A DNA stretch of 64,000 nt from an uncultured delta proteobacterium (GCA_963769935.1 CAVYNY010000018.1:1-64000), one strand, 5' to 3'. Positions 29,854-36,733 are shown, counted from the stretch's first letter. Notes: generated by a model from the sequence alone, not told the origin. Program-made: numbers and translations.

Positions 29854-29949
29854 ATGGCCCTCCCGCATCCGGTCATTGTCGTTCCCGGTATTACCGCCAT
29901 TTACCTGCATGACGAATATCCCCTGCCGCCGGAGGATATTTGGAAATAA
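29854..29949 (+). pseudogene. 5' remnant of an LCAT-like / alpha-beta hydrolase lipase gene
   Basis: Not in the ORF track. AAGGAGG RBS then MALPHPVIVVPGITAIYLHDEYPLPPEDIWK*. PVIVVPGI...L...W is the first strand and oxyanion loop of LCAT/PLA-type hydrolases. Confidence 0.6.
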
Positions 29950-30019
29950 TTGGTTTCGTTTTTCAGCAACACCTGACCAAGTTCTTTGCTTATCAGCGAT
30001 TCAATATAGGAGGTGCATC

Positions 30020-31198
30020 ATGAGCGTATGGGGAAAACTTGCATCCCGGTATGAAGGCCAGGAAAATGTAAAGCACAAAATTTTGGCACTGGACGGAGGC
30101 GGGATCCGGGGCATCCTGACCCTTGAGATCCTGGCCCGCATGGAGGAAATGCTGGCCGAAGCCACCGGCGGCGGCCCGGCTTTCAGACTGTGTCATTTTT
30201 TTGATTACGTGGGCGGCACCAGCACGGGGGCCATTATTGCGGCCGGGCTGGCCCGGGGGATGAGCGCCAAAGACCTGCTGGACTTCTACCAGAAAACCGG
30301 TCCGGCAATGTTCGATAAGCAGTTCATACTAAAACGGTGGCGAGCGTTGTACAAATCAGAACCGCTGAAAAAAGAGCTGCAGAAAACCTTCGGGGCCGCG
30401 ACGACCTTGAAACCGGACGACCTGGAGTGCCTGCTGCTGGCGGTGACCCGCAACCGCTCGACGGATTCTCCCTGGCCGATCAGCAGCAACCCGCAGGCCA
30501 AGTACAACGACACGTCCCGCCCGGACTGCAACCTCAACATTCCACTGTGGCAGATCGTGCGCGCCAGCACGGCGGCGCCCGTCTTCTTTCCGCCCGAGGT
30601 GATTCAGTGGGACCCGGCGGACGAGCGCAAAGCCTTCGTCTTCGTGGACGGCGGCCTGACGCCTTACAACAATCCGGCATATTTACTCTACCGGATGGCG
30701 ACCGAACGGGGCTACCGCCTGAATTGGGCTAGCGGCGAGGATAGACTGCTTGTTATGTCGCTCGGGACCGGAGCGGCGGCAGCTGTGGAGGGTGGCGTGG
30801 ACGATCCGAATCGAGGACTTCTGGACAACGTCGCCGCCCTTCCCAGTACCCTCATGTACGCTGCGATGATCGATCAGGATACCAGTTGTCGTTTCGTCGG
30901 CCGCTGTGTGCACGGGGCGGTGCTGGACCGTGAAATCGGCGACATGATTCCACGCGATACCGGCGGGAAAGTGATCCCGCTCGGCCAGGATCTGGGGCGC
31001 AAATTTCTTTATGCCCGCTACAATGCGGACCTGAGCCGCGAAGGTCTGGATGCGATGGGTCTGCACGACATCAAGCCCGAAAACGTCCAGAAACTCGATT
31101 CGATCGAGTACATCGGCGATCTGCGTCGGGTCGGCCGGAAGGCGGCGGAAGAGATCAAGATCGAACACTTCGCCAACTTTATTCCAAAAGAGAGGTAA
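30020..31198 (+). CDS. patatin-like phospholipase (CapV-like clade)
   Basis: Start reassigned to ATG 30020 (AGGAGG RBS). ILALDGGGIRG, FDYVGGTSTGAIIA, RASTAAPVFF, FVDGG...NNP, SLGTG. Confidence 0.95.
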   Translation: MSVWGKLASRYEGQENVKHKILALDGGGIRGILTLEILARMEEMLAEATGGGPAFRLCHFFDYVGGTSTGAIIAAGLARGMSAKDLLDFYQKTGPAMFDKQFILKRWRALYKSEPLKKELQKTFGAATTLKPDDLECLLLAVTRNRSTDSPWPISSNPQAKYNDTSRPDCNLNIPLWQIVRASTAAPVFFPPEVIQWDPADERKAFVFVDGGLTPYNNPAYLLYRMATERGYRLNWASGEDRLLVMSLGTGAAAAVEGGVDDPNRGLLDNVAALPSTLMYAAMIDQDTSCRFVGRCVHGAVLDREIGDMIPRDTGGKVIPLGQDLGRKFLYARYNADLSREGLDAMGLHDIKPENVQKLDSIEYIGDLRRVGRKAAEEIKIEHFANFIPKER

Positions 31199-34063: not shown

Positions 34064-34090
34064 GGTAAATCATCAGAAGGGAGGTTGACC

Positions 34091-36733
34091 ATGGCAGACA
34101 AAGCATTGCATCAGGAAAGCGATCTTGTCGCGCAAGCCAGGGATATCCTGCGCAAGAAGGCTCCCAAGCCCCAAGACAAGGATATTCTCGATCTCATCAG
34201 GGGCTTGAAGAGGGAAGAAGCCTTCGGATACGCCCGGAAGCTGCTCGAGCTGGCGCGTGCGTCTTTCAATCAGGAGACCGACGCGCAGTTAATGCTCAAA
34301 TTCGCCCAGGAGCAGGCCCTGTGCACGTATAAGGACCCGGATTTGCCGGTCAGCGACCGGTTGGATCGGGCTTTGCGGATTCTGGATGCGGCCGATGCCC
34401 TGGCAGAAACCAAAAGCCAGGAAAGTCTGGGTCTGGCCGGCGCCATTTTCAAACGCAAATGGGAGGTCGGCGGCCGGAAGATCCACCTGGAGCGCTCATT
34501 GTACTACTACCTGCGCGGGTATCAACAAGGGCCGGCCGGCGACCTGGGCTACACGGGCATCAATGCCGCCTATGCCCTGGACCAACTGGCCGGTCTCGAA
34601 GCCGGACAAGCTCAAAGTGCCGGCATGCCTTCGGATGTGGCCGACGAGCGGCGGACGCAGGCCAAGGACATCCGCGCGACGCTGGCGGATGCCTTACCCG
34701 GTCTTGCCGACCAGGATAACAGTTTGAACCGCAACTACTGGTTTCTGAGCACAGTTGCCGAGGCCTTCTTCGGTTTGCGGGAGTATGACAAGGCCGGTGA
34801 ATGGCTTAAAAAGGCCGCTGCCCTTCCCGATATTGCTTCGTGGGAATTGGAATCCACTGCGCGGCAGCTGGCGTCTCTCGCTCGGCTTCAATCGCAGGAT
34901 GATCTGCAAAAGGTAGAAGCCGGGGCCTGGAAAGTCCTGGAGGAATTTCTGGGAAATCGGGTTCAAGGCGTACGCACGGCATTTCTGGGCAAAGTGGGGT
35001 TGGCGCTTTCGGGCGGCGGTTTCCGGGCTTCGCTGTTCCACATCGGCTTGCTCGCCAAACTGGCTGAACTGGATATGCTGCGTCATGTCGAGGTGATCTC
35101 CTGTGTGTCCGGAGGCTCCATTATCGGTGCCCACTACTATCTGAAAGTGCGGGATCTATTCAAGCGCAAAGGGGATGCGCAGATAGACCGCAATGATTAT
35201 GTCCGCATCGTGCAGGAGACCTGCGGGGAGTTTCTCGCAGGTGTACAGACAAACATCCGCACGCGGGTGGCGGCCGAGTTCCTGACCAACCTCAAAATGA
35301 TTTTCCTGCCCAACTATTCCCGCACGATGCGTGCCGGCGAACTCTACGAGGAGAAGATCTACGCGAATGTAAAAGACGGTGAAGAGACCCGGCCGCGCTG
35401 GTTGAATGATCTGTATATCCAGCCCGCAGACGAGGGAGAGCGGTTTGTTCCCAAGCACGACAACTGGCGGCGGAGGACCAAAGTACCGATCCTGATTCTC
35501 AATACCACCGCGCTCAACACGGGGCATAACTGGCAGTTTACCGCGTCATGGATGGGGGAGCCGCCGTCGAGCATCGACACGGCCATCGATGCCAACTACC
35601 GTTTGCGGCGGATGTACTATGGAGATGCCCCGGAGCCTTACAACAGGATTCGGCTGGGTCATGCCGTGGCTGCTTCGGCCTGCGTACCCGGACTATTCGA
35701 ACCCATTGTGCTGCCACACCTGTATGAAAGAATAGTCGATGCGGATTCGGGGAAAAAAGTCGATCCCCAAGACGCAAAGAAGGCCATAACCGTCCGATTG
35801 GTGGACGGGGGGGTTCATGACAATCAGGGCATTATGAGTCTGCTGGAACAGGACTGCAACGCGGTGATTGTCAGCGACGCCAGTGGGCAGATGGACAATG
35901 ATGATAATCCCAGCAAAGGTGTTCTGGGGGTTCCGCTGCGTTCCAACAGCATTTTAATGGCCCGGGTGCGGGAGGCCGAATACCGCGAGCTGGAAGCCCG
36001 CCGCCAGTCGGGCGTACTGCGGAATCTGATGTTTATTCACCTCAAGAAAGATCTGGCAGTCAAACCGGTCGACTGGATCGGATGTGAAGATCCGTCGGAT
36101 TTCGACCAAGACCGGCGCTCCACCAATGGGAAAGATGAAACGGACTACGGTATCCTGAAAGCGGTTCAGGAGAGGCTGGCCGCCATCCGAACGGACCTGG
36201 ATTCGTTTTGCGATACCGAGGCCTTCGCACTGATGACCAGCGGCTACCGCATGGCGGAGCACGAAATCCAAAAGCAATTCGCCGATTTCCCGCTGTCGAC
36301 CGACGATCCGCCGCAGTGGGAATTCCTGGCGGTGGAAGAATCCATGAAGTATCCGCCCAAGTCGGAGCGCCTGTTGAAATTGCTGAACGTCTGCAGCCAG
36401 CAGGCATTTAAAATCTGGCGGCTGAGCACTCCCCTGAAAATCACCGGCTGGGTGCTGGGAATTCTGGCCTTGATTTTTCTGCTGTGGGCCTGCTGGAAAT
36501 GGGATTCGGTTGCATTGATTACACTGGGGACCATCGGCACGGCAGTTGCCGCAATGATTGCGGGGGCCTTTGTCGGCAAAACCGTCATGCGCGTGGTGCG
36601 CTATCGTGATACGCTGGCCGAGATCGCCTTCGGTGTCGCCATGTCGCTGGTGGGCTGGATTCTGGCCCGAATTCACCTGCATATCTTTGATAAGTGGTAT
36701 CTGCGAGCCGGACGGGTGAAGAAAGAGGGTTAG
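34091..36733 (+). CDS. DUF4071/TPR-S-like + patatin phospholipase + C-terminal transmembrane helices
   Basis: Start ATG 34091 (AGGGAGG RBS). ESLGLAGAIFKRKW, YYYLRGY...YTGINAAY, YWFLSTVAEA, WELESTARQL; GLALSGGGFRASLFHIG, SCVSGGS, AASACVPGLFEP, LVDGGVHDNQG; 2-3 hydrophobic helices at the C-terminus. Confidence 0.92.
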   Translation: MADKALHQESDLVAQARDILRKKAPKPQDKDILDLIRGLKREEAFGYARKLLELARASFNQETDAQLMLKFAQEQALCTYKDPDLPVSDRLDRALRILDAADALAETKSQESLGLAGAIFKRKWEVGGRKIHLERSLYYYLRGYQQGPAGDLGYTGINAAYALDQLAGLEAGQAQSAGMPSDVADERRTQAKDIRATLADALPGLADQDNSLNRNYWFLSTVAEAFFGLREYDKAGEWLKKAAALPDIASWELESTARQLASLARLQSQDDLQKVEAGAWKVLEEFLGNRVQGVRTAFLGKVGLALSGGGFRASLFHIGLLAKLAELDMLRHVEVISCVSGGSIIGAHYYLKVRDLFKRKGDAQIDRNDYVRIVQETCGEFLAGVQTNIRTRVAAEFLTNLKMIFLPNYSRTMRAGELYEEKIYANVKDGEETRPRWLNDLYIQPADEGERFVPKHDNWRRRTKVPILILNTTALNTGHNWQFTASWMGEPPSSIDTAIDANYRLRRMYYGDAPEPYNRIRLGHAVAASACVPGLFEPIVLPHLYERIVDADSGKKVDPQDAKKAITVRLVDGGVHDNQGIMSLLEQDCNAVIVSDASGQMDNDDNPSKGVLGVPLRSNSILMARVREAEYRELEARRQSGVLRNLMFIHLKKDLAVKPVDWIGCEDPSDFDQDRRSTNGKDETDYGILKAVQERLAAIRTDLDSFCDTEAFALMTSGYRMAEHEIQKQFADFPLSTDDPPQWEFLAVEESMKYPPKSERLLKLLNVCSQQAFKIWRLSTPLKITGWVLGILALIFLLWACWKWDSVALITLGTIGTAVAAMIAGAFVGKTVMRVVRYRDTLAEIAFGVAMSLVGWILARIHLHIFDKWYLRAGRVKKEG

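Follow-up and report, generated by a model that had tools for sequence, protein, structure and literature searches.

A TIR-less cassette of two patatins and an ASK1-like DRHyd-TPR-S-SLOG protein in an uncultured delta proteobacterium

Introduction

What kind of bacterial system joins two patatins to a protein resembling the regulatory end of an animal stress kinase, and could it work with neither a TIR gene nor a cyclase gene beside it? The question is raised by a cassette at positions 29,854-36,733 of a 64,000-nucleotide (nt) stretch of DNA from an uncultured delta proteobacterium (GCA_963769935.1 CAVYNY010000018.1:1-64000), the whole of which is called the window below. According to the open reading frame (ORF) listing of the window, the four cassette genes are intact, co-oriented, and all on the plus strand. 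They encode a stand-alone patatin of 392 amino acids (aa), a 655-aa protein with a DRHyd-like head, a TPR-S module and a SLOG tail, a conserved 218-aa protein, and an 882-aa protein combining TPR-S, patatin, and hydrophobic helices. The gaps between consecutive genes measure 5 bp (patatin/655-aa), 235 bp (655-aa/218-aa), and 21 bp (218-aa/882-aa). An earlier note on this sequence proposed the set as an undescribed conflict system. We give about even credence to the reading that the cassette belongs to a TIR-associated class of nucleotide-signal conflict systems built on a "TPR-S core" and is likely a self-contained (autonomous) abortive-infection switch. The class has already been predicted by comparative genomics; the TIR-less four-gene set itself is unnamed and is less novel than first thought.

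Predicted domains of the 655-aa protein

The second gene of the cassette (31204..33171, +) encodes the 655-aa protein, which was modeled with AlphaFold2 (AF2) from a 56-member family alignment (predicted local distance difference test score, pLDDT, 91.4; predicted template modeling score, pTM, 0.85). A full-length Foldseek search was dominated by generic TPR proteins, and the three domains were separated by an all-against-all structural search (VIA). The head (residues 1-142; 31204..31629, +) gave tied fold matches (Z 11-12) to the cytidine monophosphate (CMP) hydrolase MilB (4ohr, Z 11.9), nucleoside 2-deoxyribosyltransferase (NDT; 6evs, Z 11.7), and TIR (4c6t, Z 11.3). These were separated by sequence evidence. 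Specifically, DNPH1 or Rcl accounted for 9 of the 11 matches in a PDB profile search (E 0.085 to 0.87), the best of which (E 0.085) aligned its YELG onto the NANAFYELG motif at residues 70-78 of the 655-aa protein; Glu76 within this motif is invariant in 56/56 and 52/52 aligned sequences. The head is thus predicted to be a DRHyd/nucleoside 2-deoxyribosyltransferase-like fold carrying a YELG-type Glu, with the corresponding putative activity. PADLOC returned only a weak TIR-effector match for this protein (4.3e-06, residues 43-105).

The middle part (residues 157-460; 31672..32583, +) matches Pfam TPR-S (6.3e-10) and, by VIA, the central regulatory region of animal ASK1 (5ulm_B, Z 14.4). The similarity to ASK1 extends over the head, since residues 5-462 superpose on the thioredoxin-binding domain plus the central regulatory region of the kinase (8qgy_B; VIA Z 12.4, Foldseek E 2.6e-4). 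As modeled, the 655-aa protein is therefore built like the regulatory end of ASK1. Unlike ASK1, however, the bacterial protein has no kinase domain, keeps the catalytic-type Glu, and carries a SLOG domain after the TPR.

The tail (residues 464-655; 32593..33171, +) is predicted to adopt a YpsA-like SLOG fold. The best VIA match was Bacillus subtilis YpsA (2nx2_A, Z 16.6, root mean square deviation 2.9, 160/178 residues aligned), followed by DprA (3uqz, Z 12.2) and the Shosta protein ShosA (8zva, Z 11.5), and the SLOG motifs of the family are invariant or nearly so. Sequence-based searches yielded less: a PDB profile search with the tail retrieved only kinase and actin-related noise, Pfam matched YAcAr in 2 of 51 family members and DprA in 1 of 51, and YpsA clusters at 0.84-0.86 in the ESM Atlas are a lead only.

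The two patatins

The patatin gene upstream likely starts at an ATG at 30020, which is preceded by AGGAGG and yields 392 aa (30020..31198, +; the listed ORF runs from a TTG at 29876). Pfam Patatin matches at 98.8 bits (5.8e-28; cut-off, 27.7 bits), and the motifs DGGGIRG at residue 25, GTSTG at 66, and DGGL at 210 are present, the catalytic motifs being invariant in 40/40 aligned relatives. Among defense-specific models, the PADLOC phospholipase effector PDLC00758 of the cyclic-oligonucleotide-based antiphage signaling system (CBASS) matches at 1.5e-44, and the NCBIfam CBASS_lipase model NF041079 matches at 119.7 bits (1.5e-34) over profile positions 2-241 of 317, with a cut-off of 200 bits. 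Judged from these profile scores, the 392-aa patatin is related to CapV and is not an equivalog, since it falls below the NCBIfam cut-off.

The second patatin lies in the 882-aa protein (34085..36733, +; alternative start, ATG 34091), between a TPR-S module at about residues 39-278 (Pfam 9.4e-15) and three C-terminal hydrophobic stretches at residues 780-865, the latter identified by hydropathy. The patatin domain (residues 306-586) scores 54.2 bits in Pfam (2.8e-14; cut-off, 27.7), and its motifs GGGFR at 310, VSGGS at 341, and DGGV at 574 are invariant in 7/7 sequences from two phyla. PADLOC gave no match for the 882-aa protein. Both lipase genes are thus predicted to encode patatin-like phospholipases, each with a Pfam score above cut-off, an oxyanion motif, a Ser nucleophile, and a dyad Asp. 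The TPR-S modules of the 655-aa and 882-aa proteins are homologous by hhalign (221 columns, E 9.9e-05, probability 58%), in agreement with the earlier note, which had assigned the same TPR type to both. Its other domain calls (a DRHyd-like head with a YELG Glu, an ASK1-type TPR-S, a SLOG tail, two patatins, and hydrophobic helices) likewise held up in sequence, profile, and fold tests.

The patatin/655-aa pair recurs across phyla

A search of a library of 1.84 billion representatives with the 655-aa protein retrieved 552 clusters (50% identity) at E <= 1e-30, and the family is estimated at ~4400 genome stretches among 185,579 species genomes. Neighborhoods were counted in 57 genome loci, in which absence of TIR means absence within the fetched flanks. 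In 39 of the 57 loci the 655-aa homologue has a full-length relative of the 392-aa patatin (35-68% identity) as its neighbor, Pfam confirming Patatin in 31 of these pairs. At one locus (L022) the patatin adjoins a second copy of the 655-aa gene, at another (L037) only the patatin end is present on the contig, and in 2 of the 18 patatin-less loci the contig begins inside the 655-aa gene. The 39 pairs span at least nine phyla: Verrucomicrobiota, Nitrospirota, Acidobacteriota, Planctomycetota, Pseudomonadota, Bacteroidota, Actinomycetota, Myxococcota, and Desulfobacterota. Pairwise distances of patatins and 655-aa homologues are correlated (r = 0.478 over 528 pairs), a value that none of 500 label shuffles reached; part of the correlation comes from shared descent.

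TIR genes were sought in the same loci with a hidden Markov model (HMM) built from the TIR segments found in the loci themselves. It matched 18 of the 57 loci, and one further locus with a Pycsar-type TIR brought the count to 19/57. Rechecking of 18 HMM matches with Pfam identified 17 as TIR_2 above cut-off and one as a Macro protein. Among the 39 patatin/655-aa pairs, 13 have a TIR and 26 have none in the fetched flanks; the pair thus looks autonomous.

Other partners of the 655-aa family point in a common direction. SLATT is a neighbor of the 655-aa homologue in four loci, and Pfam identified caspase, Tle1-like lipase, LCAT lipase, CHAT proteases, and nSTAND NTPase among further neighbors. 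Two giant proteins encoded directly upstream of 655-aa homologues (L044:2891-8854, 1987 aa; L057:3956-9370, 1804 aa) combine DUF7379, an LCAT-like lipase, CHAT, and TPR-S. Longer family members are fused to SLATT, TIR_2, SIR2+AAA, NB-ARC, or nSTAND, and one carries a PNP_UDP_1 phosphorylase in place of the head. Almost every partner or fused domain is thus of the conflict type, and toxin-antitoxin genes and transposases lie near several of the loci. The 655-aa gene is patchily distributed, as an accessory gene: it was found in two of 22 further genomes from the genus, and none of 38 further genera in the order yielded a copy.

Among viral contigs, the search yielded relatives of the head only. 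In IMG/VR, 246 viral stretches encode DRHyd-like head relatives with 27-45% identity to residues 3-150, and no full-length relative of the 655-aa protein was found among the best 80 of these 246 (L172-L251), the match in L208 reaching residue 337.

Neighborhoods of the 882-aa family

For the 882-aa protein, neighborhoods were taken from the best 80 of 606 metagenome stretches matching its search patterns. An ORF bearing a DRHyd domain lies near the 882-aa homologue in 24/80 of them, a count that becomes 12/27 for stretches with at least 2.5 kb on both sides and 11/16 for those with at least 4 kb. A CapV-like patatin neighbors the homologue in 13/80 loci and a TIR in about 27/80. Gene order differs between lineages, being 882, (382-aa gene), patatin, 655 in Acidobacteria and patatin, 655, (218), 882 in the lineage of the window; the same three genes thus travel together in two phyla. 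The expectation that the cassette genes would co-occur elsewhere was therefore borne out, for the patatin beside the 655-aa homologue as well as for the 882-aa gene beside DRHyd ORFs.

The component domains are also found rearranged. In L100 (2199-5321, 1041 aa), the TPR-S/patatin/membrane architecture is fused in frame to a SLOG domain, and in L108 and L120 the 655-aa architecture is split into a DRHyd-TPR-S gene and an adjoining SLOG gene. If all three hydrophobic helices spanned the membrane, the SLOG domain of the L100 protein would end outside the cell. In same-order relatives, MAP3K_TRAF_bd/TPR-S proteins of 443-454 aa adjoin the 882-aa gene, one such locus having a TIR-NUDIX protein and a Macro protein upstream. 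Collectively, the gene set consists of two recurrent cores plus the lineage-restricted 218-aa gene and is not one obligate unit. The genes, domains, and motifs listed in the earlier note were otherwise confirmed, except for its designation of one gene as an orphan.

The 218-aa protein

The third gene (33407..34063, +) encodes the 218-aa protein. Far from being an orphan, as had been supposed, it retrieved 195 homologues at E <= 0.001, with identities as low as about 53%. The gene is rare in genomes: of 401 from the phylum, two contain it, that of the window included. In three relatives (G008, L092, and L096) it immediately precedes the 882-aa homologue. No match was obtained for the protein in Pfam, PADLOC, or NCBIfam, and the ESM Atlas gave nothing. 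Its AF2 model (pLDDT 81.8, pTM 0.81) reached at best Z 3.2 in a VIA comparison with 48,161 PDB representatives and matched no BFVD viral model at E <= 0.001. The model thus possibly represents a fold with no solved relative.

Comparison with known systems

Signal generators of the familiar kinds were absent from the scanned ORFs. TIR was found neither by Pfam scans of the window ORFs nor by the home-made TIR HMM in ORFs of at least 70 aa, and no CD-NTase (SMODS) was found in Pfam, PADLOC, and NCBIfam scans of eight ORFs of the cassette region or in 20 further ORFs of the window. The earlier note had likewise seen no CD-NTase and had expected no full match to a defense system; PADLOC indeed gave none at the system level. 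CBASS with CapV provides the closest effector models for the 392-aa patatin. Membership in CBASS was rejected, no CD-NTase having been found and the patatin scoring below the CapV cut-off.

The architecture of the 655-aa protein is not new. Burroughs and Aravind reportedly described, in 2020, a core of a DRHyd head plus TPR-S, its partners (TIR, SLOG, patatin, and caspase), and its link to animal ASK1. The cassette resembles such "Tpr core" systems in its core protein, in which a DRHyd head is followed by TPR-S. The recurrent linkage to patatin (39/57), TIR (19/57), SLATT, caspase/CHAT, and lipase, together with the fusions, is a further likeness. Two later preprints (Liu et al., 10.1101/2023.05.26.542521; Yirmiya et al., 10.64898/2025.12.03.692087) attribute the Tpr core, along with TIR, YspA, patatin, caspase, and membrane partners, to Burroughs and Aravind (2020); the authors of the second also credit the TPR to Aravind's prediction. 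DRHyd-TPR-S cores with patatin, YpsA/SLOG, TIR, and caspase partners had thus been catalogued already, and the designation "undescribed" has to be given up.

The first preprint reports phage defense by BcTir/BcTpr of Bacillus cereus. The glycosidase head of BcTpr is reported there to make an isomer of cyclic ADP-ribose (cADPR) and to deplete nicotinamide adenine dinucleotide (NAD), and 78 Tpr operons are counted, including 29 with Tpr alone, 28 TIR-Tpr, 5 YspA-Tpr, and 4 Patatin-Tpr (10.1101/2023.05.26.542521). The 655-aa protein shares the "core Tpr" of a glycosidase head plus TPR with BcTpr, and its family has the same kinds of partners. BcTir/BcTpr, however, consists of just two genes, TIR and Tpr, and lacks both SLOG and patatin.

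Thoeris requires a TIR signal generator, which was not found in the window. A candidate receptor-bearing effector is present, in the form of the MilB-like head plus TPR-S, with TPR-S in both the 655-aa and 882-aa proteins. The nearest variant is type VIII Thoeris, consisting of the TIR protein ThsB and of ThsI (CMP hydrolase plus TPR), which defends against phage and responds to cADPR; ThsI-type effectors also respond to externally supplied cADPR (10.64898/2025.12.03.692087). The head and middle of the 655-aa protein resemble ThsI in having a MilB/CMP-hydrolase-like fold followed by TPR, a putative homology based on architecture. The ThsI architecture recurs in the 443-454-aa proteins that adjoin the 882-aa family and TIR genes in relatives, and SLATT, the type VII Thoeris effector, is a partner of the 655-aa family too. 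Unlike type VIII Thoeris, the window has no TIR, an extra YpsA-like SLOG, and two patatins plus the 218-aa protein as partners. The SLOG of ThsA (type I Thoeris) binds 3'cADPR according to the preprint introduction. The cassette resembles ThsA (SIR2-SLOG) in that a SLOG stands next to an effector; here it is predicted to be YpsA-like and is fused to DRHyd-TPR-S instead of SIR2. In the literature accessible for searching, no paper was found to name or test the 882-aa architecture or a pairing of patatin with DRHyd-TPR-S-SLOG in the absence of TIR. The Thoeris preprint lists 29 putative types, phospholipase effectors included, and may cover this set (10.64898/2025.12.03.692087).

History of the locus

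Remnants of two genes precede the patatin. A stub of 31 codons plus stop (29854..29949, +), which the earlier note had recognized as a lipase remnant, corresponds to the N terminus of an LCAT-like lipase of the alpha/beta-hydrolase type, matching residues 1-31 of an intact 435-aa protein in the relative L090 (5997-7304; Pfam LCAT 1.3e-10) with 87% identity. Further upstream, a 41-codon stub of a Macro-domain gene (29456..29578, +) shows 54% identity (tblastn) to residues 148-188 of L093:5702-6448, a Macro protein (Pfam 2.2e-22) encoded just downstream of an 882-aa homologue. Both stubs lie upstream of the patatin, and together they show a rearranged and trimmed cassette. A sigma70-like site between the stubs (TTGACA, 17-bp spacer, TATCTT; 29617..29645, +) had been read as the promoter of the cassette. 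The site exists, with 10/12 matches, but it carries no statistical weight because five such sites were found versus 4.9 expected from shuffles; as a putative promoter it is a lead only.

The closest metagenome relatives, L090 and L091, contain within the same operon a TIR-WD40 gene that the earlier note had missed. It lies between the 218-aa and 882-aa genes, the orders being 218, TIR-WD40, 882, lipase in L090 and patatin, 655, 218, TIR-WD40, 882 in L091. The other four of the six relatives with both 218-aa and 882-aa genes (G008, L092, L094, and L096) have no TIR-WD40. Decay is visible elsewhere: G008 retains just a stub of the patatin and a broken 882-aa gene, and in G009 the 882-aa gene is degraded. 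The genome of the window has 24 TIR_2 matches, none of them on contig C18, from which the window derives. A second TPR-S locus of this genome, on contig C7 at ~190.9-193.8 kb (L252:6478-9275), encodes a 430-aa TPR-S/MAP3K_TRAF_bd protein and, after it, a 411-aa protein whose C-terminal domain is TIR_2. Some kilobases upstream, this C7 locus is preceded by a RES-domain gene and a further TIR gene.

Proposed mechanism and alternatives

From the predicted parts of the cassette we infer a defense function with a small-molecule link, in which the 655-aa hub could be the maker or the reader of the signal. As a self-contained abortive-infection switch, the cassette would operate as follows. The hub would detect infection and, with its Glu76 head, might make a ligand derived from NAD or a nucleotide, as reported for the BcTpr head; alternatively, it would read such a ligand with its TPR-S and SLOG parts, as proposed for ThsI. 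The signal would switch on the soluble CapV-like patatin and, through the matching TPR-S module, the membrane-anchored 882-aa patatin, and the activated patatins would destroy the cell membrane. A bolder form of this scheme, which we consider unlikely, makes the hub a complete one-protein system. In it, the Glu76 head would produce an NAD-derived messenger with neither TIR nor CD-NTase, TPR-S and SLOG would gate or amplify it, and both patatins would read it (the 882-aa protein via its TPR-S). The 218-aa protein would be a new brake or trigger receptor, and the hub would be a bacterial prototype of the ligand-gated regulatory end of ASK1.

If the patatin/655-aa pair does signal with neither TIR nor cyclase, the nucleotide-signal immune repertoire would gain a DRHyd-type generator. 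The pair would also be a tractable bacterial model for the long-standing prediction that the regulatory region of ASK1 binds a nucleotide-derived ligand, and the 882-aa family would represent a Thoeris-type effector in which a patatin is joined to both a TPR-S receptor and a membrane anchor.

Several observations weigh against the self-contained switch. The role of the DRHyd head is disputed, being that of a signal generator in one preprint (10.1101/2023.05.26.542521) and of a hypothesized nucleotide-degrading effector in the other (10.64898/2025.12.03.692087). The SLOG tail is assigned from its predicted fold, because the sequence evidence for it is weak. Identity within the 655-aa family, 69-99% among the 120 matches listed, is unusually high for a defense gene, and many of the loci are flanked by housekeeping genes. 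Finally, the TIR-WD40 of the relatives and the stubs of the window suggest that the latter may be a cut-down remnant whose signal maker was lost. On this alternative, which is a genuine if doubtful possibility, a Thoeris-like operon would have kept its effectors and TPR-S/SLOG receptors, lost its own TIR, and would now fire on a cADPR-type signal from a TIR encoded elsewhere, or be decaying. The TIR-WD40 genes inside the L090 and L091 operons fit this history, as do the two stubs in the window, whose full-length Macro and lipase counterparts are located after the 882-aa gene in relatives. A source for the signal could be sought among the 24 TIR_2 matches elsewhere in the genome, including the TPR-S plus TIR_2 locus on C7; about 27/80 loci of the 882-aa family have a TIR nearby, and the reported response of ThsI-type effectors to externally supplied cADPR is also in its favor. 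Yet none of the four window genes is disrupted, the catalytic motifs are invariant, 26 of the 39 patatin/655-aa pairs have no TIR in the fetched flanks, and the TIR-WD40 is missing in 4/6 of the relatives that have the 218-aa and 882-aa genes.

The same conservation and surroundings could instead indicate a housekeeping stress module, in which the patatins would adjust the turnover of membrane lipids under the control of an ASK1-like sensor responding to NAD, ADP-ribose, or nucleotide state. High sequence conservation across phyla, the location of many loci among metabolic genes rather than in obvious defense islands, and a fold related to the stress-kinase regulator ASK1 are consistent with such a role. 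We nevertheless consider it quite improbable, given the patchy presence (2/22 other genomes of the genus, 0/38 other genera of the order), the broken copies in G008 and G009, the conflict-type partners and fusions (TIR, SLATT, CHAT/caspase, SIR2, and STAND NTPases), and the toxin-antitoxin genes and transposases near several loci. A further reading would make the cassette a set of payload or accessory genes of an extracellular contractile injection system (eCIS), with the lipases as injected toxins. A complete eCIS cluster and two eCIS_core proteins do lie upstream on the same strand, and payload genes are usually found downstream of eCIS clusters. However, eCIS_core occurred in one locus (L031) among the Pfam-scanned neighbor ORFs of 56 loci with a 655-aa homologue, eCIS queries found no match in the 20-kb stretch of a same-genus relative, the cassette is set off from the genes upstream by 433 bp of lower G+C, and the 882-aa protein has its own predicted membrane helices. 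The payload reading was rejected because the eCIS linkage is not conserved across loci, and we regard it as scarcely credible.

Surroundings of the cassette

The eCIS cluster occupies 1789-24599 (+) and encodes a sheath, a gp19-like tube, Pvc16_N, an AAA ATPase, a spike OB domain, and baseplate J; a 1487-aa DUF6519 protein is encoded in the same region. The genes for the two eCIS_core (DUF4157) proteins come next, likewise on the plus strand, to 28090, the second protein being 1078 aa long with a long unassigned C-terminal region. We read this adjacent cluster as a coincidental neighbor of the cassette.

Downstream of the 882-aa gene, a 219-aa ORF (36959-37618, +) was assigned to no family; stubs of this ORF follow the 882-aa homologue in G008 and L123. 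PDB sequence searches with this protein and with a flanking 397-aa protein returned no match. At a distance of 8 kb downstream, an ADP-ribosylglycohydrolase gene (44678-45817, +; Pfam 7.9e-54) might provide a link between the cassette and ADP-ribose signaling. The region at 48000-53000 of the window has a G+C content of 0.38-0.45, versus about 0.55-0.63 elsewhere, and may be a separately acquired island.

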